Shown one piece after another: positions 2,285-62,127 of a stretch of DNA of 64,000 nt. The DNA comes from an uncultured virus (IMG/VR IMGVR_UViG_3300046000_006880) (Duplodnaviria; Heunggongvirae; Uroviricota; Caudoviricetes). The stretch lies in IMG/VR virus record IMGVR_UViG_3300046000_006880. The stretch is one strand, 5' to 3'. Position 1 is the stretch's first letter; each line of letters begins with the position of its first letter. The notes under the pieces were generated by a model that was not told the DNA's origin, did no database searches, and saw nothing but the letters and a program-made list of their open reading frames with translations. The translations under genes and the position numbers were made by a program.

Positions 2285-3327
2285 GATTAGGAATCATTGC
2301 AAGATCAGATAACACTGGTCTTGGCAATCAAACAAAAAATCTTGTAGATATGCTTGTCCCCAATAAAATACTTTTAATTGATTCAACCCCCTTCAATGAA
2401 AATAAACAGCACCCTGAATGGTATTCTGGATATAACTGCATAACAACAAAAAATGGTTTTGCAAGAAGAGAAGAGATAGTTCAGTTTCTTGATGGAATAG
2501 ATGTTGTATTAACTTGCGAATCTTTTTATAGCGAATTATTTTTAAGCCTTGCACAAAAAAGAAACATAAAAACTATTTTGCAATACAACTATGAGTTCTT
2601 AGACTTGGTTATAAATCCAGAGCAAAGAGTTCCAGATGTTTTAATCTCTCCAAGTGCATGGAAAATTGATCATGTCAAAGAGGTACTGGGAGATAGAACA
2701 CAAGTTATCCAGCTTCCACCACCTATTGACCCAATATTATTCTCAAGCCAAAGAGAAATTAATATGTCTAAAGATCACAAAAGAATCCTTCATATTGCTG
2801 GAAAGTTTGCTTCAAAAGATAGAAACGGTACAAGTACTGTAATTGACATGCTTCAGTATTCAAAAGAAGATTATGAATTGGTGATTAAGAGCCAAACCCC
2901 AATTGAAACAGAATGCCAAGATCCTAGACTAACTATTGATACATCTAGTCCTGATAACAGTGCAGACCTTTATAGTGGTTTTGATGCTATGGTTCTTCCA
3001 AGAAGATATGCTGGACTTTGTTTACCTATGAATGAGTCTCTTATGAGTGGATTGCCAGTGTTTATGACTGATATATCCCCGAATAATTCAGTTTTGCCTA
3101 GCGAATGGTTAGTTGAATCAGAAAAAATTGATAAACTTTTGACAAGAATGACTCTTGATGTTTATGGAGCTAATCCTAAACGACTTGCAAAAATGATTGA
3201 TAAGTATGTTAAATTAAAAAATAAAAAAGAGTCAAAGCAAAAAGCACTTGACATAGCATTAAACAGGTTTGACGTAAATAGACTTAGAGAGCAATACCTA
3301 AGTGTTATTAATAATGTAGTTAGATGA
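2281..3327 (+). CDS. GT4-family (GT-B) glycosyltransferase
   Basis: DNTGLG N-terminus; C-terminal DAMVLPRRYAGLCLPMNESLMSGLPVFMTD signature. Confidence 0.85.
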   Translation: MRLGIIARSDNTGLGNQTKNLVDMLVPNKILLIDSTPFNENKQHPEWYSGYNCITTKNGFARREEIVQFLDGIDVVLTCESFYSELFLSLAQKRNIKTILQYNYEFLDLVINPEQRVPDVLISPSAWKIDHVKEVLGDRTQVIQLPPPIDPILFSSQREINMSKDHKRILHIAGKFASKDRNGTSTVIDMLQYSKEDYELVIKSQTPIETECQDPRLTIDTSSPDNSADLYSGFDAMVLPRRYAGLCLPMNESLMSGLPVFMTDISPNNSVLPSEWLVESEKIDKLLTRMTLDVYGANPKRLAKMIDKYVKLKNKKESKQKALDIALNRFDVNRLREQYLSVINNVVR

Positions 3328-5155: not shown

Positions 5156-5454
5156 TAAATCTCTCCATTGCTTGTATAATTAAATAGATCTTCTAGTGAA
5201 GAAAACCCAACGTCTTCATTAATATCAAGAGACTTTAATAGAATGATCCAGGTTTCTTCTATATACTTTTTAGCAATCTCGGTTGGAGTCACCAACTCCG
5301 AGTCAACTAAAAATGCAAGAGGAAGACCTAAGTCATTGTAGGATATAAAGTCTTCAAACTGTTTTTCTTCTTTATGATTTATCCATAACTCAGCAAGAAT
5401 TGAGCAGTAATCATCAAAAGATGTTAGTTCATTTCCGTCGTCAGAGATTGCCAC
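5155..5454 (-). CDS. Hypothetical acidic protein
   Basis: Fills the operon gap; YNDLGLPLA motif; GTG start uncertain. Confidence 0.65.
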   Translation of the reverse strand: MAISDDGNELTSFDDYCSILAELWINHKEEKQFEDFISYNDLGLPLAFLVDSELVTPTEIAKKYIEETWIILLKSLDINEDVGFSSLEDLFNYTSNGEI

Positions 5455-5711
5455 ACATCACCCCACTGTTCTTTAGTCTTGTGCTTATTAAATTCTCGTG
5501 AAACTTCTCCACTCTCTAAGTATACACCACCCCATACGCCCCATTCTTTTCCAGAAACACCATTAGCAAAGCATGTTTTTGCAACTGGACATGAAGCACA
5601 AAAATTATCTATATTAGACCTTAATGCAATATCATCTTCATATTTTTCAAAATAAAGATTTGTTTCTAAGCCAAGGCATTTAGCTTGATCTTTCCATAAA
5701 TGTTGTTTCAA
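5424..5711 (-). CDS. whiB: WhiB-family Fe-S transcription regulator
   Basis: W..QAKC...C..CPV...C (four Cys) and the WGVWGG turn; TTG start after AAGGAG. Confidence 0.92.
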   Translation of the reverse strand: MKQHLWKDQAKCLGLETNLYFEKYEDDIALRSNIDNFCASCPVAKTCFANGVSGKEWGVWGGVYLESGEVSREFNKHKTKEQWGDVWQSLTTEMN

Positions 5712-21661: not shown

Positions 21662-21824
21662 AGTCCTTCTTTGTCATAATTAATGGAACTTTTGAAATAT
21701 GTTTTTTACTGCACATCCAAGTTAGTTCTGCTGTTTGAATCCACAAACGCAAAGACTTTACGTCTTCTTTACATATTTGGCAATTAAAATCACCATTAAA
21801 TATTTTAAATCTTTCTTCAGGCAT
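21645..21824 (-). CDS. Small Zn-ribbon protein (59 aa, absent from the ORF track)
   Basis: Hand translation gives MPEERFKIFNGDFNCQICKEDVKSLRLWIQTAELTWMCSKKHISKVPLIMTKKDYERKK; fills the gap after recA. Confidence 0.7.
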   Translation of the reverse strand: MPEERFKIFNGDFNCQICKEDVKSLRLWIQTAELTWMCSKKHISKVPLIMTKKDYERKK

Positions 21825-22830
21825 TCATTAGCTTATTTCTAAGAGATTCCTGAAGATCAAGATCTTCTTTTACACGGTTGATAAAACCTTCACGACCTTG
21901 TACCTTTGTTCCATCTTCAAGTTTATACCATGCTCCTGTGCGCTCTACAAGTCCCGCAAGTTCTGCGGTATCAACAAGATCTCCAATGCCATCAATACCA
22001 ACATTATCACCACGAAAATAAAAGTCATACTCTCCAGACTGAAATCCAGGAGATGTCTTAGAGAATTGTAATTCCCATTTAATTTTGCGACCAATTTTTT
22101 CTTCAATAAGTTTATCTCCTACTTGAATCTTGCCCTTAATAGCTTGATTATCTGATTCAGAGGAAAATAACTTAATAACAACTGAGGAATAAAACTTAGT
22201 AGCCTGACCGCCAGAAGGCTGCTGACTAGTATACATAGCACTAATATTATTACGAGACTGGCTAATAAGCACAAGCATAGTAGGCTTAACTTTATTATTA
22301 GCATAGTTAAGCATTTTCCATGCATTGCTAAAGTCTCTAGATTCCGCTCCAATTTGTTTTGTATTTTCAAGTTGCTTAAGTTCATCTGTATCCTTTTCAA
22401 AATATATGGCAGGAAGCAAAGATGTAATACTATCTATAACAATAATATCAACTCCTGCATTCATTAGATTTGTTCCTACATCTACCATTTCATTAATTGT
22501 TCTTGCTTGTGAGTAGATTAATTTTGTTGAGTCTACCCCAAGTTTATCAGCCCATGCTGAATCGTATGACATTTCTGCATCAATCCATGCACAAACCTTT
22601 CCTTCTGCTTGCGCTAGAGCAATCATCTGAAGGCACATAGAGGACTTTGCAGAAGACTTTGAGCCCCAAACCAGTACTTGTCTACCATAAGGAAGACCGC
22701 CCTTTAGAGCACGGTTTAAACCAAAACTAGGGGTTGCTGCATATTCAACTTTTTGACCAGTAGCGTCTCCTAAACGCTTGCGAATGCGTGGATCTAATTG
22801 TGCTAATACTTCTTCCATTGTTACTGACAT
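21817..22830 (-). CDS. recA: RecA/UvsX-like recombinase
   Basis: GGLPYGR, Walker A variant GSKSSAKS, WIDAE, IIVIDSI, SGGQATKFYSS and GAWY motifs. Confidence 0.93.
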   Translation of the reverse strand: MSVTMEEVLAQLDPRIRKRLGDATGQKVEYAATPSFGLNRALKGGLPYGRQVLVWGSKSSAKSSMCLQMIALAQAEGKVCAWIDAEMSYDSAWADKLGVDSTKLIYSQARTINEMVDVGTNLMNAGVDIIVIDSITSLLPAIYFEKDTDELKQLENTKQIGAESRDFSNAWKMLNYANNKVKPTMLVLISQSRNNISAMYTSQQPSGGQATKFYSSVVIKLFSSESDNQAIKGKIQVGDKLIEEKIGRKIKWELQFSKTSPGFQSGEYDFYFRGDNVGIDGIGDLVDTAELAGLVERTGAWYKLEDGTKVQGREGFINRVKEDLDLQESLRNKLMNA

Positions 22831-23159
22831 TAAAATCGTACCCCGTGTTTTTCTGGTCTAGTTTTATTGAAGTCTACTTTTTCTCTCAATGCTTGATCAA
22901 GTGATAATCTAGTATACCCTGCTTCTACTGCTCCTGCATATAGATCTAGAGTACGTATAATAATATCTGCAAACTCTTTTGTTATTTCTTCTTCACCTTT
23001 ATCTTTTCTAATTGCCTCCATAACTTCTGTTACTTCAGAAACAATCATCATGCATTGCTTAGCAATAAAAATATCATCAACTTCTTCAGGCCAAAAACCT
23101 TTTTCAACTGCAACCTCATGCAAATTAATTGCTAGATTATCAAATAAATTATCATACAT
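22830..23159 (-). CDS. MazG-like nucleotide pyrophosphohydrolase
   Basis: SEVTEVMEAIRK...KEFADIIIR EXXE/EXXD pattern. Confidence 0.82.
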   Translation of the reverse strand: MYDNLFDNLAINLHEVAVEKGFWPEEVDDIFIAKQCMMIVSEVTEVMEAIRKDKGEEEITKEFADIIIRTLDLYAGAVEAGYTRLSLDQALREKVDFNKTRPEKHGVRF

Positions 23160-26100
23160 TTACTACATCCTCCAATATAACGGTTCCATCTTTAGTCTTA
23201 CCCAAAGAAACTTTATATACATTTCCTTCTTCAATAGTCATATATGCTTTAGAAAATACTGTTGGAAATACAAGAATTGAATGAAGTTCTCTTGCTGCAT
23301 CTGCTACAACAAGATTAGCCATTTTTTTACCAGCCTTGGTCATTCTTGGTTTGAATGAAACTACAAATTGTTCTTCACCTTTATACGGTAATTGTTTATA
23401 ATTTAAAAACTTTACTAATGCATCTTTTGATTCTTTAATGCTATCAGCTGGTATAGCATTTACAATTCTGTTATCACTGACAAGAATTAAATATGTTCTA
23501 CCAGTTTCAATTAATGTATTTTCATCATCAAAAATTCCTACACTTCCAGTTTTATCAAGAAACTCAACTCTTGACCAACCCTTACCACGTTTAATTGATT
23601 TGATCATACCAAGCATAACAAAAGATCCAGTCTCTTCATATTCTTCTGCTTCCTGAATATAAGCATAGTAATGTTGAGGCACCGTCATATTAAACTCAGG
23701 TAGGTTTAAGTATTCGTATAAATTTTCTTTGATTTCTTGATCATTGCGTTCACTGTCAGCAAACGTTGCTGCACCAATTACTCTTAGTGCTTGTAATGCA
23801 CGAGAGTTTACTCCGTTACCTTTTGTGAATGTAAACTCTTCAAGTTCTTTGTATGAACTAAATGGTCGTGCTGCAATATATCTTTCTGCAATTTTATCAG
23901 AAATAAACTTGATAGAACTGAGTCCAAACCTAATGCCTTTACCTTCAATCTTAAAATCCATATCCGAATCGTTAATGTGAGGTAGCTTAACACTAATGCC
24001 CATTCTTTTTGCTTCAATAAGATATTCAGTTCTTGCATCTTTATCCTTTTCATTCTTTAATAGTGAATACATAAACTCAAGTGGATAATGATATTTTAGC
24101 CAAGCTGTCCAGTATGACAGTGTTGAGTATGCTACTGCGTGTGACTTATTAAATGAATACCCTGCGTGGGCCTCAAAGTCATGCCATAAATCTAGTGCTT
24201 GATTTGGAGAAATGTATTGCGAAGCACCTTTAACAAACTGGTCTTTAAAAACATCAAATTCTTTAGCATCTTTTTTCTTACCAATAATCTTTCTAACTTT
24301 GTCTGCTTCAGACATTGACATACCACCAAGTTGTACACATGCTTGCATAACTTGTTCCTGATAAAGAATACATCCATATGTTTCTTCTGTAAATGACTTT
24401 AAGATCTGATGCTTATAGTCTGGGTTTTGACGACCATGCTTGATAGCAATATAATCTTTGCCAATAGTATTCATAGCACCTGGGCGAACCAAAGCGTTTG
24501 ATGCAGATAATTCTTCAAGATTCTTTACACGCATTTTAACTAAAAGGTTTGTGTATGGTGCTGCTTCACACTGAAACACACCTTTTGTATATCCATCAGA
24601 AAGCATAGTATATACATTAGCATCTTCCATATCAATCTTTAATGGATCAATTTTTGTTCCTTCACGCTCTTTAATAATATCAATACAATCTTTGAGTACC
24701 GTTAAAGTTTTAAGACCTAAAGCGTCAATCTTAATTAGGCCAATGTTTTCAGCCTCTCCCATATCTACAGCAACAACAGGAATGCGGTCATCGCTGCCAG
24801 CAACAGAACGTGTTTCCATTGGGGCATACCTAAATATAGGGTCCTTACTAGTAACAACACCTGCAGCGTGAATACCAGTGCCCTTAATTCTTCCACGTAA
24901 TTGTTCACCATACACCTCTACTTCTGGATATTTATCTCTAAACCATTGTGCACTTTTTGACATGCAGTATTCATCCCAAGTATCAATTTGCTTATTTACT
25001 TTATTTGCATCAGCGAGTGGGATATTTAAAACACGAGAAACATCTTTAACAATATTTTTATCTTTAAACTGCATGAATGTAGCAATAGATGCAACATGTC
25101 GGTATTGACGAACAAGATAATCTTTTACTTCATCACGGCGATTATCCTGAATATCTGAATCAATATCTGGAAAGTCATTACGGTCAGGGTTAATGAAGCG
25201 GAAGAACAAAAGACCGTGCTTAATTGGATCAATGTCTGTAATACCTAAAGCATAACAAAGCAAAGATCCTGCTGCAGAACCACGACCTGGGCCAACCATA
25301 ATGCCTTCTTTTTTTGCCCAGTTAAGCATGTTACGGACAACTAGAAAGTAAGGACCAAAATTCTTTTCACCAATAATTTTTAATTCTTCATCAAGACGAT
25401 CAAGATATTCTTTATTATTTTCTAGACCACGTTGAGATAAACCTTCAATAGCAAAAGTTTTTAATTCCTGCATTGGTTTTTTATATTGAACTGGAAGTAA
25501 ATCAAGTCCCGACTTAATATCATATTCTTCAATTTTGTCTGCAATCTCTAAAGAACTTGTAAACATTTCTTCATCTGTATGACCTTGCTCTGCCATAGCA
25601 GATTTCATTTCTTCATAAGACAAAAGGTGAATGTCAAAAGTTCTAAATGACATTTTACGATCTTCGCCATATAAATAATCTAGACGCTCCATCATGTTGT
25701 TAATTTTCTTTGACTTGTCAAATGTTGATTCTTTTAATACTTTGCCATGCGTATTAAGCAGAAGCATCATTTCTTGAATTTCTTTTTGACTTGTATCTGC
25801 ATGGTGACAATCGGGGGTAACTACTACTTTTACATTAAATGCTTTGGCAAGTGCTACAAGTTCATCATTAATATTCTTTGGATTATGAGGCATCAATTCA
25901 ATATAAAAGTCATCTTTAAAACGATTCTTAAACCATTGAACCTTTTCTTTTGCAAATGCATACTCTTCATTCTCAATAGCTTTTGCAATAAGTCCACCCT
26001 GACATGCAGACAATACAATTAATCCATCTCCGTATTGATCTAATACTTCAAAATCAATTCTTGGTTTTCTATAAAAACCATCTGTCCATGCAATTTCATT

Positions 26101-26427
26101 TAGTTTATTAAGGTTTTCTAATCCTTGTTGATTCTTAGCAAGAAGGACTATATGGAAAAAATTAACATCAAGTGGACCTACCCTTTCGGACTTATCCCTT
26201 TTATCATGTCTATCTAATGCCAAATAGCCTTCTATGCCAAGAATTGGCTTGATGCCCTTTGCTTTTGCAATTCGGTACAGTTCCCGATGCCCAGATAAGG
26301 TTCCGTGATCTGTGATAGCCAATGCTGGCATACCAAGTTCAACTGCTCGGTCAATATATTCTTCTGGAGTAGCAACACCATCCATTAAGGAATAGTGTGT
26401 ATGGACATGCAAGCCTACATAATTCAC
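23152..26427 (-). CDS. dnaE: DNA polymerase III alpha subunit (family C)
   Basis: PHP domain HVHTHYSLMDG/TDHG; GPGRGSAAGSL; PDIDSD; HAAG; KIDALGL; YSFNKSH; C-terminal OB fold. Confidence 0.97.
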   Translation of the reverse strand: MNYVGLHVHTHYSLMDGVATPEEYIDRAVELGMPALAITDHGTLSGHRELYRIAKAKGIKPILGIEGYLALDRHDKRDKSERVGPLDVNFFHIVLLAKNQQGLENLNKLNEIAWTDGFYRKPRIDFEVLDQYGDGLIVLSACQGGLIAKAIENEEYAFAKEKVQWFKNRFKDDFYIELMPHNPKNINDELVALAKAFNVKVVVTPDCHHADTSQKEIQEMMLLLNTHGKVLKESTFDKSKKINNMMERLDYLYGEDRKMSFRTFDIHLLSYEEMKSAMAEQGHTDEEMFTSSLEIADKIEEYDIKSGLDLLPVQYKKPMQELKTFAIEGLSQRGLENNKEYLDRLDEELKIIGEKNFGPYFLVVRNMLNWAKKEGIMVGPGRGSAAGSLLCYALGITDIDPIKHGLLFFRFINPDRNDFPDIDSDIQDNRRDEVKDYLVRQYRHVASIATFMQFKDKNIVKDVSRVLNIPLADANKVNKQIDTWDEYCMSKSAQWFRDKYPEVEVYGEQLRGRIKGTGIHAAGVVTSKDPIFRYAPMETRSVAGSDDRIPVVAVDMGEAENIGLIKIDALGLKTLTVLKDCIDIIKEREGTKIDPLKIDMEDANVYTMLSDGYTKGVFQCEAAPYTNLLVKMRVKNLEELSASNALVRPGAMNTIGKDYIAIKHGRQNPDYKHQILKSFTEETYGCILYQEQVMQACVQLGGMSMSEADKVRKIIGKKKDAKEFDVFKDQFVKGASQYISPNQALDLWHDFEAHAGYSFNKSHAVAYSTLSYWTAWLKYHYPLEFMYSLLKNEKDKDARTEYLIEAKRMGISVKLPHINDSDMDFKIEGKGIRFGLSSIKFISDKIAERYIAARPFSSYKELEEFTFTKGNGVNSRALQALRVIGAATFADSERNDQEIKENLYEYLNLPEFNMTVPQHYYAYIQEAEEYEETGSFVMLGMIKSIKRGKGWSRVEFLDKTGSVGIFDDENTLIETGRTYLILVSDNRIVNAIPADSIKESKDALVKFLNYKQLPYKGEEQFVVSFKPRMTKAGKKMANLVVADAARELHSILVFPTVFSKAYMTIEEGNVYKVSLGKTKDGTVILEDVVNV

Positions 26428-51504: not shown

Positions 51505-51846
51505 TTATTTACCGTAGTACTTTGCCACTTCTTGAGGTGTCGCTGTGCGAACCTTGTTGTGGGTAAGCCACTTTTCGGAAACCTCCTTGGTTACAATGTT
51601 ATAGCCTTTTATGATTTCTCCAACACCATTCCAGAAAATATTACGTTCTGAAAAGAGTGCTACTTTTTCATTAATTAGCTTTTCTGCTTTTGGGTTTACT
51701 GTTGACTCTTGTTTTGGAGTCCAACTAGAAATTACTTCAAGCATGTGAACTTTTGTTGTTACCCCAAACAAATCAATGTTATTTTTCTTTGCATAAGACT
51801 TTATTTCCATAACAGTCTTTTTAGATAAATCTTCAATAATAGACAT
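51505..51846 (-). CDS. Hypothetical protein with N-terminal Rho-N/HeH-like helical motif
   Basis: LSKKTVMEIKSYAKKNNIDL..TKVHMLEVI; own promoter and AGGAGG SD. Confidence 0.65.
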   Translation of the reverse strand: MSIIEDLSKKTVMEIKSYAKKNNIDLFGVTTKVHMLEVISSWTPKQESTVNPKAEKLINEKVALFSERNIFWNGVGEIIKGYNIVTKEVSEKWLTHNKVRTATPQEVAKYYGK

Positions 51847-51874
51847 TAATTCCTCCTATGTTATTATACCAGAA

Positions 51875-52111
51875 TTAGCGTCGTCTTCCTCTACCAAAAT
51901 TATTTTGCATTGGTAAACGAATTCCATTTGGTGTTCCCGATGGATTTACAGCATTAGGTCCCGATGTTTCTCCAAGAGTTGCTCCTGAAGCTCCAAGTGT
52001 ATTAACTTGTAGACCACTAGATCCCATAATAATAACACCTGGATTTCCTAATGTAACAATTGCTCCTTCGCCATTGTGACTATGATCAATTGGTTCACCT
52101 GGATAAGACAT
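51875..52111 (-). CDS. Small protein homologous to the N-arm of the major capsid protein
   Basis: Shares YPG....H.H.G.GA and TSG.NAVNP.GTP.GI.LP.Q with the capsid N-terminus; GGGAG SD. Confidence 0.75.
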   Translation of the reverse strand: MSYPGEPIDHSHNGEGAIVTLGNPGVIIMGSSGLQVNTLGASGATLGETSGPNAVNPSGTPNGIRLPMQNNFGRGRRR

Positions 52112-52128
52112 TTTATTCTCCCTATAAA

Positions 52129-52167
52129 TGACTGAAGGGAACGGCTTTTACACCGTTCCCCAAGTCA
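52129..52167 (-). terminator. Stem-loop after the capsid gene (weak terminator or mRNA stabiliser)
   Basis: Minus strand GACTTGGGGAACGG-TGTAAAAG-CCGTTCCCTTCAGTC with only a short T run. Confidence 0.55.
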
Positions 52168-52180
52168 ATCGTTTTAGCGA

Positions 52181-53293
52181 TTATGAGTTATTTGCTGCTG
52201 TTGCGTATGCAACTGCGTCAAGTTCTTCCCATTGTAGACCAAAGCGGACGAATACTGTGTATTCAATTGTGTCCTTCTTTGGTTGGTAGAAACGGTTTAC
52301 AGTGATATCACGTTGGAATCCCCATACACGGTTCTGTGGGAATGTAAGATCTACATATCCTGCAGGGTAGTAAGGAACTTCTTGGACTTCAACACCGAGA
52401 ACACGAGTTGTACGTGCTCCACCAAATGTCTGAGCATTGCCATCAAGGTATGCTTGACGGTTTGCAGGTGTACCTGCTGGCTTACCAGCAAATGCTTCTG
52501 CGATTGCATCAGCCAATGTACCATTATTTTTAATGATACCCTGGAATGCGTCTGTACCAGCATAGAACTTAAGATTGTTCTTGATTGCACGATACTTACG
52601 TGGCATTGCGAGGATAATGTTTTGCATAACCTCTGTTGTCCATGCGTTGTCAGCAACAGTTACCATTGACTCGTGTGAGTCTCCGCCCTGTACTTTTTCA
52701 ACAAAGCCTTCCATGATTGAAAGGAATGATCCTGTTGCACCGTCACCGTTGATCGCAAGATCTTCAATGTCGTTTGCAAAAGCATTTGTCATCAAACGTA
52801 CGAGATGGTCTTCAAGAGCGCCGCCTTCTACGTTATCTTCTAGTGCTTCTGTTGATACTTCCCAGTCAAGACGAATCTTCTTTGTAGTCAATTCAACCTT
52901 TGAGAAAGTTGCGCCTGCATTTGTAAATGTAGGGTCTGCTTGTGCTGCTGCACGAATTACACGCTCACCAACGTTAACTTTTTCAAGTTCCATTGTATTT
53001 GCTCGCATTGTAACTCTACGTCCATCTTTAGCGAGAACTGTAGCATCCCACACATAATCAATGAAGCGACGTGCTTGTTCAGGCAATAGGATTCCACCTG
53101 GTGTGCCGACAGGGTTAACTGCGTTTGCACCTGATGTTCCGTAATTTGCTCCAGCAATATTTCCTAGAATGCCTTCACGACCACTTACGATGGTTGCGGG
53201 AGCACCGTCTGAACCTGATGCTACTGCACCTGATCCATCATGACCATGACTAGTTGTAGTTCCTGGATAGTTTTTTACGATATCTTCTGACAT
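52181..53293 (-). CDS. Major capsid protein (HK97 fold)
   Basis: GGILLPEQARRFID, STEALEDN, AFANDIEDLAINGD and IEYTVFVRFG; AGGAGGTG SD before ATG 53293. Confidence 0.93.
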   Translation of the reverse strand: MSEDIVKNYPGTTTSHGHDGSGAVASGSDGAPATIVSGREGILGNIAGANYGTSGANAVNPVGTPGGILLPEQARRFIDYVWDATVLAKDGRRVTMRANTMELEKVNVGERVIRAAAQADPTFTNAGATFSKVELTTKKIRLDWEVSTEALEDNVEGGALEDHLVRLMTNAFANDIEDLAINGDGATGSFLSIMEGFVEKVQGGDSHESMVTVADNAWTTEVMQNIILAMPRKYRAIKNNLKFYAGTDAFQGIIKNNGTLADAIAEAFAGKPAGTPANRQAYLDGNAQTFGGARTTRVLGVEVQEVPYYPAGYVDLTFPQNRVWGFQRDITVNRFYQPKKDTIEYTVFVRFGLQWEELDAVAYATAANNS

Positions 53294-53321
53294 ATTGTTC
53301 ACCTCCTAGTGATTTTTTATG

Positions 53322-54632
53322 TTAGTTATATAGGTCGGAGAATTTGAGGAAACGTCCGCCCCATAGGGATTTTTGAATTGGACTTTCATCCATTTCCTGC
53401 ACGATCTCGCCAAGATCGCCAGACTTGCGGAAAGCGGTGTCCTTTTCTACGGAATCAACTCTCTTTCCAATTTCGTTAAAAGTACCCTTGATCTGATTTA
53501 CATCAGTTGTTGTGGCATCAAGAGACTTCTTTATATTAGCAACTTCATCACTAAGTGACTTAAGTGTTGCTGTTAGATCGCCAAAGGCATTAGTAACAGA
53601 TTCCTTGATGTCTGTAATTGCATCAGCAATTACTTGATCAGCCTTTGCAGCATCTTCTGCTGCTGGTGCTTCTGGATTCTGAATTGCATCTTCTACTGAA
53701 GATGTAGCACTATCATCAGCAATTGAGTCAGACTTTTCTGCTTCAGCAACTGGTGCTTCTGCTTCTGTGACTGCTTCTACTGCTTCTATTGGTTGTGCCT
53801 CTGGAGTGACCTCTACTGATACTGCTTCTGCTTCTGCAACTGGTGCATCCACTGTTAGTGTATCTTCTGACATAGGGTTTACCTCCTTTGTAATCTTAGA
53901 TGTATTAATGCCTTTAGCACTATCAACTAAGAACTTTATCATGTTTGCTTTATCTGAGTCATTTTTTTCTACAAAACCAATGTTTTTCATTTCGTTACCG
54001 TTTACTGGGCTAACGTATGTCTCTTCATCAGAAGTTAGAACAATGCCTGTTTCTTCATCATAAAAAACATTTTCTACAACTACATCGGCAAACTCACCTT
54101 TAATAACATCTACACCGTCAACTTTTTCAACTGACATAATACTTGCAAATTGATTTGCTGGTGAATCTACTAAAGATAGTTCTACTAGATCATAGTCTTT
54201 AATAATTCTAATTGCTTTATCAAGTTCTTCATTATATGCATCATCCCACTTATTCATTCGTCCCCCGATTGAAAAACCAGTGTATGTTCCATCAAGAACT
54301 TTTTCCCATGCGTCCTGTGCACCTTTGGAAATGTATGTAGAAACATAAACTCCCTTATAAAATTTCTTTGTTTCTGGATCAAAATATTTTTCTTCTTTAA
54401 AGTTAAGCATTTTTCCAACTGCTGAGGGCTGATGCATTTCACGTATGTTTCCACGGAATTTTGCAAAAGCACTCATAGATGCTTCTGTTGTAACAATGTC
54501 ATATTGTTTATCAACATTGTCAAGAGATGCAAAACCAGAGACAATTCTTTTCTCAATGTCTACTTTTCCAAAGGGCATTGAAAGGCGAAGGCTGTCGCCG
54601 TCAGTGGTCCAAAAAGCTTTATTTATGTCCAT
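53322..54632 (-). CDS. Prohead protease fused to scaffolding domain
   Basis: VSGFAS, REMH, GFSIGG and ELSLVDSPANQ (HK97-type protease); acidic linker; C-terminal coiled coil. Confidence 0.9.
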   Translation of the reverse strand: MDINKAFWTTDGDSLRLSMPFGKVDIEKRIVSGFASLDNVDKQYDIVTTEASMSAFAKFRGNIREMHQPSAVGKMLNFKEEKYFDPETKKFYKGVYVSTYISKGAQDAWEKVLDGTYTGFSIGGRMNKWDDAYNEELDKAIRIIKDYDLVELSLVDSPANQFASIMSVEKVDGVDVIKGEFADVVVENVFYDEETGIVLTSDEETYVSPVNGNEMKNIGFVEKNDSDKANMIKFLVDSAKGINTSKITKEVNPMSEDTLTVDAPVAEAEAVSVEVTPEAQPIEAVEAVTEAEAPVAEAEKSDSIADDSATSSVEDAIQNPEAPAAEDAAKADQVIADAITDIKESVTNAFGDLTATLKSLSDEVANIKKSLDATTTDVNQIKGTFNEIGKRVDSVEKDTAFRKSGDLGEIVQEMDESPIQKSLWGGRFLKFSDLYN

Positions 54633-54673: not shown

Positions 54674-56308
54674 TTATTGAGATGCTCTACCTTCACCCTT
54701 CGGATTGCGTCCAGATACAGTTGCAGAGCTATCAGATTGGTTATTTGTTCGTTCAGAATCTCTAGAACGATTCCCATTTGCTCTTGAATCTGCAGCCTGT
54801 CTTGGACTAAGTTCAAGTGGAGTATCACCGTGATCTGCTTGAGGAAGGTCTAAGATTTCACGTGCTTCATTAGGAAGCATAATTTGATTCTTTACATAAC
54901 GCTCAAGAATTTGTGACTGTGCAATCTCATCTGTAAGTGTAAGTTCATTAAACTTAAACTGAAGAATGTCTGTTTTTTCTTTAATAATTTTGCTAATTAC
55001 TTTTTCAAGATGCTGTTGTTCTGGACGAGAAACCTGCTCTTTAAATGTACGATCTTGAGCAAGAGCTGCAGCAATAGCACCTGAGTCTGAACCACCAAGT
55101 TTAGAAATTGGAACTTGATGAGCAATTAAAATATCGTCACGATTTTGCTTTCGGTACTCTTTAAATGAACCATCCTGAATACCATTTTCAATTGGCTTCA
55201 TTTCAAACTCAACTTTAGAATGATCAGTATCTCCAGGAAGAGGAATGTAAAGTGTTCTATGTGATTGTGACTTCATTCCTGTTTGCAAGAATCTAAACAT
55301 TTTATCTTCAGCGTCTGCAGATAACTTTGCACCCTTAAGAGTTATAACATATCTTGGTACCGCTTTATTTTCAAAATAATCAATATTATATTGTGATGCA
55401 AGCTGATCACCAATTAATGATGGAAGGGCTGCAATAATATCAGGTACACCGTAATAAGTATTTAAAGGTGAATAATCTTTAAAGTGAATAATTTCATTTG
55501 GACGATTATCTTCTGTTAGTGGGTTTTGATTATTTGCAGCAAAGTTACGGAAGTAAACAACTTTTGGTCCAATGATTTGAACAAAACCATCACGAAGGCG
55601 ACGGACACGAACTGTTGTTGAAGGAATATGTCCAACATATCCAATCTCTCCAGTTATGGTTCTTCCAATTTCCATGTAACCATTTCCAGTTGCTTGAAGA
55701 TCTGTATAAATTTTTTCCATTGTTCGTGTAAAACTATCATCATCGTTTAATGATTCAAGCCAATCACGTATTTCTAATTTAGCTCTTTCAATACGATTAC
55801 GAGCACGAAGAGTTGCACCTGTATCTGAATTGTTTTCAAGACTCATCATTGTTCTATCTGTGACATCAAAACGATATCCAAGACCAACAACATTTTCTAC
55901 CTTTGCGTCAATTGCGGCATGATTAGCAAAAGATGTATCATAAAAATTAGCAAGTTCATACATATTATAAGGCGGAGTAATTACATCAAATAAGCCATAG
56001 CCATTGCGGTAAACCAAACCAGGATTAATTGCTTTAGATCCAGAATCTTTGATGCCTTTTGGATCAGCATTTGCTGAACTCAAATATGAATCACTAAGCA
56101 AATTAATATTTGCATTTGTAGCAAGATAACCTTCTTGGGTTACTGCTTTATTTACTTGTCTTGTAACACGGCGTTTAAAGTTTTCTTCAATTCCCGTCAA
56201 AGATTTTAATTCGTCCCAAGATTTATTAAATGGATCACTATTTTTAAACTGACTTTCTGGTTTATCTGTTGTTCCAAGTCTTGCTTCTAGGTAATCACTG
56301 TTACTCAT
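54674..56308 (-). CDS. Portal protein
   Basis: TGNGYMEI, EIIHFKDYSP..YYGVP, YFENKAVP and PNEAREIL; upstream of the protease. Start taken as MSNSDY. Confidence 0.92.
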   Translation of the reverse strand: MSNSDYLEARLGTTDKPESQFKNSDPFNKSWDELKSLTGIEENFKRRVTRQVNKAVTQEGYLATNANINLLSDSYLSSANADPKGIKDSGSKAINPGLVYRNGYGLFDVITPPYNMYELANFYDTSFANHAAIDAKVENVVGLGYRFDVTDRTMMSLENNSDTGATLRARNRIERAKLEIRDWLESLNDDDSFTRTMEKIYTDLQATGNGYMEIGRTITGEIGYVGHIPSTTVRVRRLRDGFVQIIGPKVVYFRNFAANNQNPLTEDNRPNEIIHFKDYSPLNTYYGVPDIIAALPSLIGDQLASQYNIDYFENKAVPRYVITLKGAKLSADAEDKMFRFLQTGMKSQSHRTLYIPLPGDTDHSKVEFEMKPIENGIQDGSFKEYRKQNRDDILIAHQVPISKLGGSDSGAIAAALAQDRTFKEQVSRPEQQHLEKVISKIIKEKTDILQFKFNELTLTDEIAQSQILERYVKNQIMLPNEAREILDLPQADHGDTPLELSPRQAADSRANGNRSRDSERTNNQSDSSATVSGRNPKGEGRASQ

Positions 56309-56696
56309 CAAATGCACCCTTTCCTGCTTTATTAAGAGTTTGCTGGGCTGCATGCCACGCACCTAAATCGTTCATTGAAGGGATTAGTCCAGACTTCATA
56401 CGATCTATTTGTTCAGAGTGTTCCTCTTCTGAAATACGAGTAAGGCCTGGAACAAATACTGCTTCTCCATCGCCTTCATCTCCATAGTGCTTTGCTGCTG
56501 CTTTAAGTTCTGCAATTTTTGCTATATCATTACGCATTGACTCAATGTTGAGTACGTTGCCTTCTCCGTCAGTAAACCATTTTCCAGTTGACTTTTTATA
56601 CACATATAGACCCCAGTTATATTTTTTTTCTATAACCTGTCTGCGTACATTTTTGACAATTGGTTGGCCAGTTTCGGGGTTGATTAAAGAATCCAT
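56301..56696 (-). CDS. Hypothetical protein upstream of portal
   Basis: Coupled to portal; ATG lies 7 nt after TGGTATACT. Confidence 0.75.
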   Translation of the reverse strand: MDSLINPETGQPIVKNVRRQVIEKKYNWGLYVYKKSTGKWFTDGEGNVLNIESMRNDIAKIAELKAAAKHYGDEGDGEAVFVPGLTRISEEEHSEQIDRMKSGLIPSMNDLGAWHAAQQTLNKAGKGAFDE

Positions 56697-56748: not shown

Positions 56749-58782
56749 TTAGTACAACTTGATTTCACAAGCATCTGTAGAACAATATTTCTCAGACTCA
56801 GCATCAAGGTTATCTTTACCATCATAAATAGCAGACCAGTCAATTTTGCCAATTGTTCCTACATATGCATTATATTGTTCTCTTGTAATCTCCGTATATG
56901 GTTGCTGTGGATAGGTTTTATTCCCCATTGGAAGGAATGAAACAGCCTTTAGCTGGCCCTCATACATATTAAGGGCTGGAGCAATAAATTTTGTTTCTTC
57001 TTCTTTGTCAAATGAAAGTGTCACAGAGACACCATTATCTGACCAGTACTTCTGAGCAGTTGCTGCCAAACCAATTTTCTCAAACAAACTAACCTGCTTT
57101 TCTGCACGTTTGTGTCCAGATGCAACTGGGAAATATACTACCTGTGTATTTGCTGATACAAGGTCTGGTTCAACTTTATACCCCGCTGCTTTGAATAGGT
57201 GAAGCATTGGATCTTGGTCTCCAAAGCGAATAGCTCTAAGATAGAACTCTCCACCAGGACCCCAGTGAACTCCAGGGGTAGCACCAGAGAGAAGTGAAAC
57301 AGATCCTGATGGCTTAACTGTAGTTACACGAACTGACTCACGAACACACAACCATTCTGAATATGAATGATCATATTTACGGATTGTATTATATCCTTCA
57401 TCCATCCATTCACGAATAACAGGAAGACCATATTCATCAGCAAAAGAAGCAATGCCTGTAAGAGATGTGCCAATACGACGATTGCGTTGCATAATACCAT
57501 TTGTCTGTTGCCAATGTGTAGGCATTAAAGTTACAGTTTTTCCATAAAGATAAGCAAACTTTAATGTCTTTAAAAAGTCTTCTTTAGATTCATGGCGATT
57601 AAGATGAACTTCAACCAATGTACATAGTTCATAACTTTCTAGTGGCTGTTCAGCACAAGGATTAAAACCCATGATTCTAGAATCTTTATAGTCTGGTGCA
57701 TCTGCAAGACGACCATAACTACGTGCAACATCTAACCAAATAAAACCTGGTTCTCCATTATCTGCAATTAAATCTACATAGTCTTCATACTTTGTTCCAA
57801 CTTCAGCAGCAATAGAGTTATTACTCATCCATGCCCACCCTGGTTTCTTTGGATCATATGAATTTCTTTCTGCAAATACCTCGGGATTTTTAAGATTAAT
57901 AAAATCTTGATCTTCTGGTGTACCAAGTGCAAGGGTAGCAGAACGACGAACATTTCCAGAAACAACACATGTACCAATAAGATTTACAATATCTACAATA
58001 GCACGGCTATCAAAGGCATCCCCTGCTCTAGAACCGATTACATTACGAATACGTGTATGGAGATCAATAAGTGGTGCTGGACCGCTTGCTACCCCGCCAA
58101 AGCCCTTAATAGGGGCACCTAGAGGACGAATGAGGTCATAGGTAAACTCTTGAATAGACTGGTTTGCACGAAGGAATGAATTAATAAGTAATCTAACAGA
58201 CTCAACCCATCCTTCACGAGTATCTGGGATTTCATAAATAGATGCTGGCTCTGTTGGAGCATAGATAGACATTTGCTTGTCTTGACCAAGGGTATCAAAC
58301 CCTACACCAATACCTAACATTAATGCATCCATTACCCAAGCAAAAAGAGCACCTGGATCATTACGATCAATGTCACGAGTAGAGACCATTGCACAATTTT
58401 GAAGGGATGCTGAGTTACGCTTCTCCATAGTCATAGGAGTTCCAAATGCCCAGAGACCACGGCCTGGAGGAGTCCACTTTAATTCAAACATTCTTTGAAA
58501 GGCTTCTTGGGCAGACTTCTGTGCCTTGTTATCATTCCAAGGTAGGCGATTATCTTTAGCATGGTTTTTTTGAACTGAATACATACCCTCAATTACACGA
58601 CGACATACTTCATGCCAGCGTTCTTTTGTCCCGTCTTCTTTAACACGAGAATATGTACGAATAAATGTTACCTCTCCCAGAGAGTTAGATCCTGCATCTG
58701 AGAATCCAAATGGCGCTGGGATGGTTTGATATTTATTTACAAATTCTTCTGATAGACGAAAAGAGAATACGCTTTCTGACAT
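56749..58782 (-). CDS. nrdJ: Class II (B12-dependent) ribonucleotide reductase, monomeric RTPR type
   Basis: RTYSR, PPGRGLW, LQNC, GNVRRSA, NPCAEQ, TVKPSGSVS and C-terminal CSTDAC redox pair. Confidence 0.95.
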   Translation of the reverse strand: MSESVFSFRLSEEFVNKYQTIPAPFGFSDAGSNSLGEVTFIRTYSRVKEDGTKERWHEVCRRVIEGMYSVQKNHAKDNRLPWNDNKAQKSAQEAFQRMFELKWTPPGRGLWAFGTPMTMEKRNSASLQNCAMVSTRDIDRNDPGALFAWVMDALMLGIGVGFDTLGQDKQMSIYAPTEPASIYEIPDTREGWVESVRLLINSFLRANQSIQEFTYDLIRPLGAPIKGFGGVASGPAPLIDLHTRIRNVIGSRAGDAFDSRAIVDIVNLIGTCVVSGNVRRSATLALGTPEDQDFINLKNPEVFAERNSYDPKKPGWAWMSNNSIAAEVGTKYEDYVDLIADNGEPGFIWLDVARSYGRLADAPDYKDSRIMGFNPCAEQPLESYELCTLVEVHLNRHESKEDFLKTLKFAYLYGKTVTLMPTHWQQTNGIMQRNRRIGTSLTGIASFADEYGLPVIREWMDEGYNTIRKYDHSYSEWLCVRESVRVTTVKPSGSVSLLSGATPGVHWGPGGEFYLRAIRFGDQDPMLHLFKAAGYKVEPDLVSANTQVVYFPVASGHKRAEKQVSLFEKIGLAATAQKYWSDNGVSVTLSFDKEEETKFIAPALNMYEGQLKAVSFLPMGNKTYPQQPYTEITREQYNAYVGTIGKIDWSAIYDGKDNLDAESEKYCSTDACEIKLY

Positions 58783-58940: not shown

Positions 58941-59507
58941 TTATACATAACGAATTGCGCGAACTGGGAAAGCACCAGTTCCTTTATCAGAGTAGTCCTG
59001 AGTGCCATCTACCATACTTTGTATATGAGCATCTGACGTAAATTGCTCACTAGATGCCCAATAATAGGTTTGAGCAGCGGTTCCGCTTGTTGGAAAACCA
59101 CCGACAACTGTTTTTTGTAAGTAAAGTTGAGCAAGTTCTAATCTTGAAGGTAAGAACCAATCCGTTTTACCGCCACCAGTATAGGAGCGGCATCTAGTTG
59201 CGGCTTTATTGGCGGTACTGTTCTGCGCCACTATCGCAATTGAGTTGGTCAATCCTGCACCGATAGCGGTGGAAGTGCCTACAAGAGTATTTCCATTTCC
59301 AGACCAATTGAGTTGTTGTGTAAGATTAAATGCTGGGGAAGTAGAAGAATTTGCTGCTTCCATATATCTTCCCCAGGATAAAGTGCTTCCAGCATCATAG
59401 AATATTTTACCTCCGCCAGGACCAGTATCGCCTATAGAATAAACAATAGGGGCAGATAAAGATCCTGCACCTGAAAAAGATCCGACTCCGCTGAACGTAT
59501 TTGGCAT
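58941..59507 (-). CDS. DUF1566/Lcl-like (C-type-lectin fold) protein, paralogue B
   Basis: IGDTGPGGGKIFY, DWFLPSRLEL, YYWASSE and VRAIR. Confidence 0.75.
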   Translation of the reverse strand: MPNTFSGVGSFSGAGSLSAPIVYSIGDTGPGGGKIFYDAGSTLSWGRYMEAANSSTSPAFNLTQQLNWSGNGNTLVGTSTAIGAGLTNSIAIVAQNSTANKAATRCRSYTGGGKTDWFLPSRLELAQLYLQKTVVGGFPTSGTAAQTYYWASSEQFTSDAHIQSMVDGTQDYSDKGTGAFPVRAIRYV

Positions 59508-59508
59508 A

Positions 59509-59814
59509 TTATTCTACTAGTTCTTGCCAATTAAGATCTTCTTCTACCCACATATACATTTTACCATCTGTTGGATATGAAGTAGGTGGTTCATATGATG
59601 CAGTTTCTAAATTTAATGTCCAAGATGGGAATTGCTGAACTCCATAGCACTCTAAGGTTTGTCTTGCAATTAATTCTGATTCCGCCCAAATCCATCCTTC
59701 AACGGGATAAGAGTAGGTATCCTTTTGATCTATCCATAATTCAAAGTTATCATTGATAACTCTATCGGCTGACCAAATTAGAAAGCCGTTGTCATTTTTA
59801 TAAAATCCTTGCAT
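59509..59814 (-). CDS. Hypothetical protein (fibre assembly-like)
   Basis: YSYPVEGW and FPSWTL...YPTDGKMY.W.E motifs common in tail-associated small proteins. Confidence 0.65.
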   Translation of the reverse strand: MQGFYKNDNGFLIWSADRVINDNFELWIDQKDTYSYPVEGWIWAESELIARQTLECYGVQQFPSWTLNLETASYEPPTSYPTDGKMYMWVEEDLNWQELVE

Positions 59815-59826
59815 TATATTTCTCCC

Positions 59827-60372
59827 TTATTCTACGTAACGAATTGGTCTAATATACCAGGTTCCACTTTTTGCAGTAGAAGCTTCGCCGCTGCTATAGC
59901 GACCATAAGCATTTGTTGCACTGCTCTCAGTTGAGGACCAATAGTATGCATTACCAGCCACTGGTGAATACGAAGCCCTATTAGCAATAAATGGAGTTAA
60001 TTCATCTCTTGATGGTAAGAACCAATCAGTAAATCCATTAACCTCATATGCGTCACAATATGTTCCTGCTTTACTTGCTGTATTGTTTTGTGCAACTATG
60101 GCTAAAGTATTTGTATATCCTGTGCCAATTGCTGAAGATGTTCCAACTAAAGTATTAGTGTTACCTGACCATGTTCCTGTTGTATCACTAAAATTTGAAG
60201 CACCAGCAGGAGCTGGAGCACATTCTAAATACTGACCCCAAGATAGTGTGCTTCCAGCGTCATAAAAAATCTTTCCTCCTGCAGGACCAGTTTGACCAAT
60301 AGTATAAACTGCTTTATTTTTTAAACTACCGACACCTGAGAAAGATCCTTGACCACTATAAGTACTTGGCAT
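59827..60372 (-). CDS. DUF1566/Lcl-like (C-type-lectin fold) protein, paralogue A
   Basis: IGQTGPAGGKIFY, DWFLPSRDEL, YYWSSTE and IRPIR. Confidence 0.75.
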   Translation of the reverse strand: MPSTYSGQGSFSGVGSLKNKAVYTIGQTGPAGGKIFYDAGSTLSWGQYLECAPAPAGASNFSDTTGTWSGNTNTLVGTSSAIGTGYTNTLAIVAQNNTASKAGTYCDAYEVNGFTDWFLPSRDELTPFIANRASYSPVAGNAYYWSSTESSATNAYGRYSSGEASTAKSGTWYIRPIRYVE

Positions 60373-60378
60373 GTTGCA

Positions 60379-62127
60379 TTACCAGGCACTCATTATATTC
60401 ATAAGAGAAATATCTTGTTCATATCCACTTGCATCAAGTGATGCATGTATTGGTGATGTAATTTTTGTTGCAGATGCTACTCCAAGTGTAGGAGCAGTCA
60501 TTGTTGGGCTAGTTAAAGTTTTATTTGTAAGAGTCTGTGTATTTCCAGCAGTTGTAATTATATTATCTGCAGACAAAGTTCCAACATATGCGTTACTGCC
60601 TCCAGCTGGAACAATTCTAACGTTTGTGTCTCCACTTACTAAGAAATCACCAGTTCCGCTAATTGTGGATGTTCCTGAAAGTGTTGCACCTGATAATGTT
60701 AGTCCCGCAATTGTTGTGACGGTAGCTCCTGAAGCAATTGATGTTGATCCAAGTGTTGGTGCTGAATATCCTGATACTGTACCCCAAGAAGTTGAAGTTC
60801 CATCTGTAGTAAGGTACTTACCTGAGTTGCTAGTTTGTGAAGCAACTAAATCAGTTCCGTTATATTTTAATGTCTTACCTGAAGCAAGATTAATATGCTC
60901 TGATGAAGTCCAAGCATCTGTAGCGTCTACCCAGTTAAAAGTTTTATCAGTTGCCCCCTTGAGTGTGAGGCCACCACCGTCGGCAGTTGTATCAGTTGGG
61001 GTATCAACATCACCAAGGATAATATTCTTATCATCCACTGCAAGAGTAGTAGAGTTAATTGTTGTGGTTGTGCCATTAATTGTTAGGTCCCCTGAAAGTG
61101 TAAGGGATGTACCAGTTGCAGCACCAATGTTTGGTGTTACAAGTGTTGGGGTATCAGCAAAAACAAGTGTTCCACTACCATTGTGATCAGAGATTACTGA
61201 TTGAAGTTCTGATGAAGAAGTTGCTGCAAAAGCATCCAACTTATTGTTTGTAAGAGCAACAGTACCTGTAGCATCTGGGAAAGTTACTGTACGGTCACCA
61301 GTTGGATCTGCAACTGTAAGTGTTGTCTCAAATTCATTTGCTGTTGTACCTTCAAGAACGATTGAACCATCTGAAAGCGTAAGTCCTGAAACTACTGGAC
61401 TTGTCAAAGTTTTGTTTGTTAAAGTTTCTGTTTTGCTTTCAGTTGATTTGGCATCTAATTGAGTTTGTATTGCTGAAGTAACACCATTAAGGTATCCGAT
61501 TTCTGTATCTGTAACATCTGTAACACGAGCCTGAATTGTTGTAGTATCTACATCAAATTTACTTGTTCCAGCATTCCAGCTAATTCCATTACCTGCAAGT
61601 GTAGACTGATCTACTTCTGCTCCACCAATTTCTGAATCTACATATTCTTGTGTTGCTACTGTTCCTGTTTCATCAGGAAATGTTATAGTACGATCTGCTG
61701 TGGGTTCTCCTGCTGAAAGGGTAAGTTCGTGAGCATCTGCTGTTGAACCTTCCATTACGATTGTTGAAGTAAATATACCAATGTCTGTAATGTCTGAAAG
61801 GTTTCCTGTTGTAATAACAGTTCCTGTAACATTTGGAATAGTAATTGTACGATCTGCTGTAGGATCTGTTATTTGAAGTGTTGTTTCAAATCCATCTGCC
61901 GTTGCACCCTCAAATGTAATACTTGAGCCAAAGGCAGGGTTTACTGTTGAATTAGCATCAATAAAGTAATCAAGGGTTAGCCAGTGATTTGTGCCATCAC
62001 CAATTTTAAACTTGTTTGTATCGGTCTCATATCCAATTTCGCCAGGTTCAAGAATGGGGCCATTTCCTGAATTTGTTGAAATCCATTGAGCCGCAGTACC
62101 TCTGCGCTGTTGCATTCTTGTTGCCAT
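60379..62127 (-). CDS. Virion fibre protein with Mtd-N/hyaluronidase-like N-terminal domain
   Basis: RMQQRRGTAAQW...PILEPGEIGYETDTNKFKIGDG; three EG.TA...E.TL....PT.DRT.T.P repeats; LTNKTLTSP motifs. Confidence 0.75.
   Translation of the reverse strand: MATRMQQRRGTAAQWISTNSGNGPILEPGEIGYETDTNKFKIGDGTNHWLTLDYFIDANSTVNPAFGSSITFEGATADGFETTLQITDPTADRTITIPNVTGTVITTGNLSDITDIGIFTSTIVMEGSTADAHELTLSAGEPTADRTITFPDETGTVATQEYVDSEIGGAEVDQSTLAGNGISWNAGTSKFDVDTTTIQARVTDVTDTEIGYLNGVTSAIQTQLDAKSTESKTETLTNKTLTSPVVSGLTLSDGSIVLEGTTANEFETTLTVADPTGDRTVTFPDATGTVALTNNKLDAFAATSSSELQSVISDHNGSGTLVFADTPTLVTPNIGAATGTSLTLSGDLTINGTTTTINSTTLAVDDKNIILGDVDTPTDTTADGGGLTLKGATDKTFNWVDATDAWTSSEHINLASGKTLKYNGTDLVASQTSNSGKYLTTDGTSTSWGTVSGYSAPTLGSTSIASGATVTTIAGLTLSGATLSGTSTISGTGDFLVSGDTNVRIVPAGGSNAYVGTLSADNIITTAGNTQTLTNKTLTSPTMTAPTLGVASATKITSPIHASLDASGYEQDISLMNIMSAW

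Follow-up and report, generated by a model that had tools for sequence, protein, structure and literature searches.

Assembly of heads built on the HK97 fold depends on contacts that the N-terminus of the capsid protein makes with the scaffold, the protease, the portal and neighbouring capsomers. In HK97 gp5 and T5 pb8, the N-terminal part ahead of the N-arm is a delta domain, a helical element of ~100–160 amino acids (aa) that is part of the capsid polypeptide. In T4, a short N-terminal peptide suffices to bring internal proteins into the prohead and is trimmed by the prohead protease; this capsid-targeting peptide, of ~10 aa, recurs on several cargo proteins and was not copied from a capsid leader. 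For the procapsids of P2 and P4, PMC7552001 describes the first 14 residues of the capsid protein as triplets at the trimer interfaces inside the shell, and in P2 the 31 N-terminal residues are then cut by gpO, a protease-scaffold fusion. Ccm of SaPIbov5 is described in PMC8569155 as a homologue of the capsid protein of its helper. Here we analyse a stretch of 64,000 nucleotides (nt), hereafter the window, from the uncultured Caudoviricetes virus IMGVR_UViG_3300046000_006880, in which the major capsid gene is followed by a 78-aa open reading frame (ORF), the small ORF. The product of the small ORF is a free-standing copy of the capsid protein's N-terminal leader to which a basic tail has been added; it is under selection, optional and probably expressed at a low level, and it co-varies with the leader from which it was copied. 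In open-access papers and preprints, to which the literature search was confined, we found no account of a capsid leader that exists as a separate, free-standing copy.

Comparison with the known systems brings out both shared and divergent features. The locus resembles the P2 gpN/gpO pair in its HK97-fold capsid protein, in the fusion of a protease to a scaffold-like half encoded next to the capsid gene, and in a leader that lies ahead of the ordered N-arm. However, P2 has no separate leader gene, its leader is helical and 31 aa long whereas that of the window is Gly-rich, ~65 aa long and predicted to be unstructured, and leader cleavage is known in P2 but only putative here. As an N-terminal part of an HK97-fold capsid protein ahead of the N-arm, the leader also recalls a delta domain, and the window's capsid body finds some of its closest fold matches in the T5/DT57C and HK97 capsids. 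Here, in contrast, it is the protease to which a scaffold seems to be joined, the short leader has no predicted helix, and the leader occurs a second time as a free-standing protein. A short N-terminal peptide that serves a small protein as a ticket into the prohead would be reminiscent of the T4 internal proteins, but there are only two carriers of the module here and the ‘cargo’ is a basic tail of 9–15 aa. Finally, Ccm and T4 gp24 are copies of a capsid gene used as head-assembly accessories; they are full-length HK97-fold paralogues, whereas the small ORF lacks the whole fold.

The relationship between the two proteins is clear from a BLASTP comparison, in which residues 3–69 of the small ORF align with residues 12–76 of the capsid protein in its 373-aa form (GTG start), or residues 9–73 in the form that starts at an ATG, with 32/69 identities (46%), 6 gap positions and an E-value of 2e-13. 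The ATG is the likely capsid start because the upstream GTG, at 53302, sits within a GGAGGTG Shine-Dalgarno sequence. A first-pass annotation had claimed that the 78-aa ORF mirrors the first ~80 residues of the capsid protein; the motifs that it quoted lie in this alignment, and the Arg-rich tail GRGRRR is present as it described. The small ORF is a separate gene that begins 69 nt downstream, with stops, a hairpin and its own ribosome-binding site and ATG intervening. There is no third copy in the window, where the next tblastn match (E 0.012) is to a Gly-rich part of the tape-measure gene, and the nearest related record, of 98 kb, contains exactly two matches to the module; each genome thus has two carriers of the module, one being the small ORF and the other the capsid protein. 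When 1.84 billion representatives were searched with a profile, 19 matches were returned, comprising small ORFs, N-terminal fragments of capsid proteins and a few Gly-repeat proteins; because no other type of protein is among them, the module does not serve generally as a targeting tag. For the small ORF there is no matching family in Pfam or PHROG (including no known decoration family), no usable match in the ESM Atlas, and no homologue in GenBank phages (tblastn, E up to 1e-3).

The capsid protein is identified by family profiles (phrog_1623 at 4.2e-72 and phrog_10 at 1.1e-6) and by structure prediction. It has no Pfam match with E-values as high as 10, but a precomputed PF05065 match is present on many capsid homologues that are 81–94% identical to it; a search of solved structures with the capsid profile gave no significant result (best E 0.23). 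AlphaFold2 (AF2) reached a predicted local distance difference test (pLDDT) score of 31.3 when supplied with 31 close capsid sequences alone; the addition of 30 distant homologues yielded a usable model, built on 61 sequences, with a mean pLDDT of 67.5 and a predicted template modelling (pTM) score of 0.62. Foldseek finds 399 matches to this model in the PDB at E up to 0.001, and the top-ranked matches listed are phage capsids and HK97-fold shells (gene transfer agent (GTA), capsid-forming phage-inducible chromosomal island (cf-PICI) and encapsulin). The best of them are DT57C/T5, P2/P4 gpN, phiRSA1 and HK97, with E-values from 1.6e-14 to ~1e-11; 8ho3_M (1.6e-14) ranks first and the P4 procapsid gpN (7jw1_B, 7.8e-14) second. 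Within the model, residues 1–67 have pLDDT below 50 and lack secondary structure; no helix appears in this region, at a low confidence of 35–45, and the first ordered helix is formed by residues 71–84. Homology to the small ORF ends where the ordered model starts, in agreement with the first-pass annotation, which had placed the end of the copy at the beginning of the HK97 body. The label ‘N-arm’ that it gave to the copy holds for the last third; most of the copy is an unstructured, lineage-specific extension of ~50 aa ahead of the N-arm, and ‘leader’ or ‘N-terminal extension’ is the better name.

Comparison with more distant capsid proteins defines this extension. The capsid body (residues 69–363) is 43–44% identical to the capsids of Streptomyces BE-type phages. 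These capsids, together with 30 non-redundant relatives from viral contigs, begin MSxELLEKVIRTTEVGSGGGGLLNAEQ..RFIDYMWD, whereas the window's capsid begins MSEDIVKN and rejoins the homologues of the Streptomyces-phage type at GGILLPEQARRFIDYVWD. Because the segment is lacking in these ~43%-identical proteins, ~50 of the ~66 residues shared by the capsid protein and the small ORF (YPG...GTP) are a lineage-specific insertion or extension. The small ORF consists of M-S, this extension, ~8 further residues and the basic tail. Within the clade, the extension is variable and contains indels, whereas the capsid sequence from NAVNPxGTPGGILxPEQARRF onward is almost invariant. In the capsid protein, the segment sits N-terminal to the ordered N-arm, the position of a propeptide or delta domain.

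The first-pass annotation had offered four conceivable roles for the protein: it could supply N-arm contacts at the portal vertex, act as a cement whose tail binds DNA, modulate the size of the capsid, or serve as a decoy for a host defence. That the copy comprises the leader and N-arm without the body suits the idea that it fills a symmetry mismatch at the portal vertex, the first of these. Some five copies of the leader and N-arm would occupy the sites that have no penton, with the Arg tails clamping the portal or the first DNA; a capsid arm would in this way have been spun off as its own gene to patch one non-icosahedral vertex, or other special sites. In HK97, according to PMC10275583, the N-terminal scaffold domain of the capsid protein meets the portal. 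The apparent expression of the small ORF (described below) is low and similar to that of the next head-completion genes, which favours the idea weakly. However, relatives with nearly identical capsid genes lack the small ORF, and no feature found here localises the small protein to a vertex. We know of no other phage that needs a portal-vertex filler peptide, and consider such a role very unlikely.

To define the distribution of the small ORF, we surveyed 80 related IMG/VR loci with 75–100% capsid identity. The ORF is present in 35 of the 80; 41 do not have it, even though their sequence continues for 500 nt or more beyond the capsid gene, and 4 are too short to judge. In all 35 carriers the frame is intact, encoding 70–85 aa with the start MSY(P/S/T)(G/D), and no decayed copy was seen among them. 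Pairwise Nei-Gojobori (NG86) estimates of the ratio of nonsynonymous to synonymous substitution (dN/dS), in which the pairs are not independent, give 0.17 for the small ORF in the window's close clade (98 pairs) and 0.41 over all 526 pairs, where dS is near saturation; the corresponding values are 0.23 for the capsid leader and 0.12–0.14 for the capsid body. Divergence among carriers is deep, with dS about 1. In addition, a 402-nt contig from a lake RNA library is 99% identical to the window, and 5/5 of its differences within the small ORF are synonymous third positions. These patterns indicate that the small ORF is a real gene under purifying selection. They bear out the view of the first-pass annotation that it is a diverged, selected paralogue rather than a recent broken duplicate; dN/dS, which that annotation proposed to compute, lies below 1.

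The same evidence speaks to whether the small ORF could be a relic without function that a partial duplication left behind and that is retained solely through linkage or through a DNA or RNA signal overlapping it. It has been lost in about half of the relatives and has no known domain, as such a leftover might. In contrast, intact frames in 35/35 carriers across deep divergence, dN/dS of 0.17–0.41 and differences confined to synonymous third positions are the marks of a maintained protein; the charge pattern and the start of the protein are conserved as well, and no long ORF lies on the opposite strand. The leftover explanation is disfavoured, and of all those considered here it is the one to which we give the least credence. 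The family is common in an abundant group of lake actinophages, with at least 96 small-protein clusters and more than 3,600 capsid clusters; none of the 96 small-ORF clusters in the protein collection has a name or a Pfam domain, and the family is unannotated in Pfam and PHROGs.

When 32 small ORFs are placed in one tree with 30 capsid leaders, the two groups separate on one branch (Shimodaira-Hasegawa-like approximate likelihood ratio test (SH-aLRT) 99), and the small-ORF and leader subtrees show the same clades, as far as few columns and a quick method can tell. The single supported split and the congruent subtrees point to one old duplication of the 5′-end of the capsid gene, followed by co-inheritance of the two copies. 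Presence of the small ORF is patchy on a capsid tree of 78 rows (a quick tree with SH-aLRT supports only): nine changes are needed, of which at least six are forced by well-supported branches. Specifically, loci L038 and L040 carry the small ORF and L039 and L041 are without it, yet their capsid genes are nearly identical. When L038 and L039 are aligned, near-identity stops at the capsid stop codon; this marks a mosaic boundary, and both gain and loss thus take place by exchange of modules. The first-pass annotation had named absence or decay in close relatives as evidence against its proposal. Of these, absence is found, in 41/76 informative loci, and decay is not, a distribution that indicates dispensability and module exchange.

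Two further observations concern rearrangements around the capsid gene. In L008 (3497–6010), a capsid gene is followed by 14 codons from the start of the small ORF, joined out of frame to capsid codons 51–373, and finally by a small ORF of normal form. Either the paralogous segments have recombined unequally or the metagenome was mis-assembled, and we do not use this locus as evidence. In the non-carriers L056, L057 and L065, a different ORF of 106 aa lies between the capsid gene and a 110-aa gene, and is a paralogue of the C-terminal half of that downstream gene. Small duplicated genes of the head module thus have a hot spot in the gap 3′ of the capsid gene.

The two copies have changed in parallel. 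In a joint alignment, the mean similarity of a small ORF to its own capsid leader is 0.446, against 0.415 to other leaders, and 0/10,000 permutations reach the cognate value. In both L023 and L080, an HxH motif has been replaced by x(L/I)N in both copies; likewise, PTV versus PTE, and HTH, HQH or HAH/HTH, co-occur by clade in the small ORF and the leader. If the duplication was single and old, common ancestry by itself would not be expected to produce such cognate-specific likeness. Recent gene conversion as the source of the parallel changes is unlikely because identical residues mostly use different codons, with identical codons at 11/28 such residues in the window, 9/27 in L002 and 19/31 in L017. 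The simplest reading of the parallel change is a shared constraint, in which both peptides would fit the same partner, or each other.

Parallel change is also what a decoy would have to display. A free copy of the leader could soak up or mislead a host defence that senses the capsid leader, and the small ORF tracks its own capsid leader, is accessory and patchy, borders on a mosaic junction, and has a higher rate of evolution than the capsid body. However, its gene is in the late head operon behind a hairpin and is apparently expressed at a low level, so that a decoy would be both late and scarce, and a stoichiometric role fits poorly with this position. The conserved basic tail and the invariant start MSYPG would be left unexplained, no defence-related neighbour is present, and no sensor is known for this host group. 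We regard a decoy as distinctly unlikely.

The tail has its own pattern of conservation. Among 122 distinct full-length members, the last 12 residues carry a net charge of at least +3 in 112 and are free of acidic residues in 121, and the remainder of the protein is net negative in 121. The sequence of the tail drifts between members (GRGRRR, GRSKRR, LRASRR, PQSLYK); it extends 9–15 residues beyond the homologous part and contains no cargo domain. Conservation of charge rather than of sequence suggests an acidic partner, which might be DNA or else the protease-scaffold protein, through its acidic linker. This 440-aa protein, whose C-terminal half may act as a scaffold by analogy to P2 gpO, is likewise a candidate partner of the capsid leader.

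If the leader does contact this protein, a free leader might serve as a competitive regulator of assembly. It would bind the protease-scaffold, or the protease active site, instead of the capsid leaders, and would tune the timing of scaffold release or proteolysis, in the cytoplasm or the prohead, without a structural role. Several observations are compatible with this: the small ORF shares its motifs with the capsid leader and the two change in parallel, the protease-scaffold fusion is encoded directly upstream, the gene is dispensable, and the linker of the 440-aa protein is acidic enough to be a plausible docking site for the basic tail. However, a competitor needs amounts like those of its target, and the gene lies behind the post-capsid hairpin, across which contig depth drops ~40-fold. 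Furthermore, when protease-scaffold columns were compared with the state of HxH in the capsid leader (40 with, 23 without), no ligand-like partner emerged; the columns that track HxH are only phylogeny-like and lie in the variable linker. We consider regulation by competition unlikely.

The position of the small ORF suggests how it is expressed. Every locus has, 3′ of the capsid stop, a GC-rich hairpin, which in the window has a folding energy of -28.6 kcal/mol (z -5.05 versus 200 shuffles) and which shows compensatory changes on both sides in 8/10 pairs across 25 loci. A TCTG(G/A)TATAAT box is also conserved in all loci. In non-carriers, the hairpin is followed by the box and then directly by the next gene; in carriers, a ribosome-binding site and the small ORF are placed exactly between the hairpin and the box, and an (A)GGAG-type ribosome-binding site occurs at this place in all carriers listed. 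Both elements that the first-pass annotation had pointed out are therefore real: the small ORF has its own Shine-Dalgarno sequence (GGGAG, 6 bases 5′ of the ATG), and the stem-loop between the genes is stable and conserved. A consensus terminator scan did not flag the hairpin, the T tail of which is weak in this window, and a sigma-70 consensus scan did not call the TGGTATAAT box a promoter, there being no -35 element; we consider the box a putative promoter. As the small ORF has no promoter-like box of its own, it should depend on read-through of the hairpin.

Strain-matched contigs from four lake metatranscriptome libraries of one study provide read depths for this region; contig depth cannot rank genes or prove transcription. 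For X1, X2 and X3, respectively, depth is 1100, 969 and 445 over the 5′ part of the capsid gene (52967–53372; for X3, 53063–53291), 314, 303 and 136 at its 3′-end (52160–52267), and 26, 26 and 16 over 51788–52189, which includes the hairpin, the whole small ORF and the start of the next gene. Depth at the small ORF is thus ~40-fold below that of the capsid gene in these RNA-library contigs, a poor measure of expression, and the drop is a weak hint of strong attenuation at the hairpin. The lower copy number that the first-pass annotation had deduced from the stem-loop is plausible for a gene in this position, with the depths adding a faint indication in its favour.

These features also bear on whether the small protein decorates the outside of the head. 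As an external decoration or cement protein, the peptide would lie on the outer capsid surface by the N-terminal extensions of the capsid protein and stabilise the shell. The gene adjoins the capsid gene as many decoration genes do, it is optional as decoration proteins often are, and its Gly-rich segments alternate with short hydrophobic runs that could add strands. However, decoration proteins are made in nearly capsid amounts, against which the gene position and, weakly, the drop in contig depth speak; no decoration family in Pfam or PHROG matches the protein, and a basic tail would be unexplained outside the shell. Such a function is, in our view, quite improbable.

We tentatively favour a reading in which the small protein is a low-copy head-assembly accessory, or a head-internal component, that uses the capsid leader's own contacts. 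Small amounts would be made by read-through of the post-capsid hairpin, and the free leader would be taken into the assembling prohead via the contacts that the capsid leaders use, whether leader to leader or leader to the protease-scaffold encoded just upstream; uptake by these same contacts is suggested because the small protein carries the leader's motifs. It would then act as a minor component of head assembly or of the head interior, with DNA or the acidic scaffold linker as the partner to which its basic tail binds. On maturation, when the capsid leaders go, the small protein may likewise be trimmed or expelled.

Several points weigh against this proposal. Translation of the small ORF, presence of its product in proheads or virions, and binding to a partner are predictions from sequence, and cleavage of the leader in this phage group is proposed by analogy with P2. 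AF2 gives the leader no fold (pLDDT below 50). In X1, the small ORF and the next gene are covered to equal depth (26.2 versus 26.3); RNA libraries may contain DNA, and equal depths would also fit a flat DNA background. The parallel change of the two copies could come from old, partial gene conversion, the synonymous traces of which have faded. In one clade, the small ORF has a deletion of TSGPNAVNP, an N-arm-like sequence that is invariant in the capsids, so exact mimicry of the N-arm is not required. Finally, the gene is missing from more than half of the informative relatives, some of them with nearly identical capsid genes, and thus any role that it has is dispensable.

A natural, selected gene for the N-terminal piece alone is a ready-made probe of the contacts made by a capsid leader. 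The small ORF suggests that a leader can work as a separate module, and it bears on how scaffold or leader domains that are fused to the capsid protein relate to free scaffolding proteins.

The small ORF is part of a head-gene cluster that lies entirely on the minus strand (Table 1). In the order of transcription, the genes are those for the portal, the protease-scaffold and the capsid protein, then the 69-nt spacer, the small ORF, a gene of 113 aa and a gene of 325 aa that is adaptor-like. The 113-aa protein has an N-terminal KKTVxELKxYAKKNNI motif, which is weakly matched in other phage proteins (PHROG, E ~1e-3), and its C-terminal half is conserved.

Table 1. Positions of the head genes, associated elements and other marker genes in the window.
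Feature	Position	Strand	Evidence or remark
Portal	54674-56362	-	PF04860 at 5.7e-31
Prohead protease fused to acidic/coiled C-terminal scaffold-like half, 440 aa	53322-54644	-	PF14550 1.8e-6 and PF04586 1.4e-5 (residues 27-174); phrog_9427 2.8e-111
Major capsid protein, HK97 fold, 370 aa from ATG	52181-53293	-	phrog_1623 4.2e-72; AF2 and Foldseek
Capsid residues 9-73, segment paralogous to the small ORF (Gly-rich N-terminal extension and start of N-arm)	53075-53269	-	BLASTP
GC-rich hairpin just 3′ of the capsid gene, 10-bp core stem, 6-nt loop	52136-52161	-	Extended fold 52119-52180
GGGAG ribosome-binding site of the small ORF	52118-52122	-	6 bases 5′ of ATG
Small ORF, 78 aa, ATG start (coordinates include stop)	51875-52111	-	Capsid-leader paralogue, tail GRGRRR
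TGGTATAAT, extended -10-like box right 3′ of the small-ORF stop, ahead of the next gene	51863-51871	-	Conservation
Downstream 113-aa gene, kept in all relatives	51505-51846	-	Weak PHROG matches only; no Pfam
WhiB-type transcription factor	5427-5711	-	PF02467 at 7.1e-11
DNA polymerase III alpha	23155-26427
RecA	21820-22830
Class II ribonucleotide reductase	56752-58782

Elsewhere, the window encodes WhiB, DNA polymerase III alpha, RecA, DnaB, a primase, a class II ribonucleotide reductase and a tape measure protein of 1698 aa, at a GC content of ~36%. The phage is a large siphophage of lytic type, belonging to the whiB-carrying freshwater actinophage kind, and the presence of WhiB together with a capsid gene like those of Streptomyces and Rhodococcus phages indicates an actinobacterial host. 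We found no close relative among GenBank phages; the nearest related genome record, the 98-kb one mentioned above, is 92% complete. We also considered a host call from metagenome-assembled genome (MAG) bins and rejected it: seven close relatives (L082–L088) are in MAGs of seven unrelated genera, from Flavobacterium to Polynucleobacter to Bifidobacterium, and because this is evident binning contamination the labels are unfit for assigning a host.

Two other regions of the window contain modules of a different kind. At 58944–62127 (minus strand), a 582-aa protein with a Major-tropism-determinant N-terminal domain (PF18454, 1.9e-13) is encoded beside two Lcl_C-domain proteins; this is possibly a receptor-binding module or a target of the diversity-generating type. 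At 149–3324, a block on the opposite (plus) strand encodes a methyltransferase (PF13489 and others) and two weakly glycosyltransferase-like ORFs, the matches of which (RXYLT1_C and Glyco_trans_1_4) are both under the cut-off. Considered alongside the Ser/Thr/Gly-rich extension of the capsid protein, this block raises the idea that the virion might be glycosylated.

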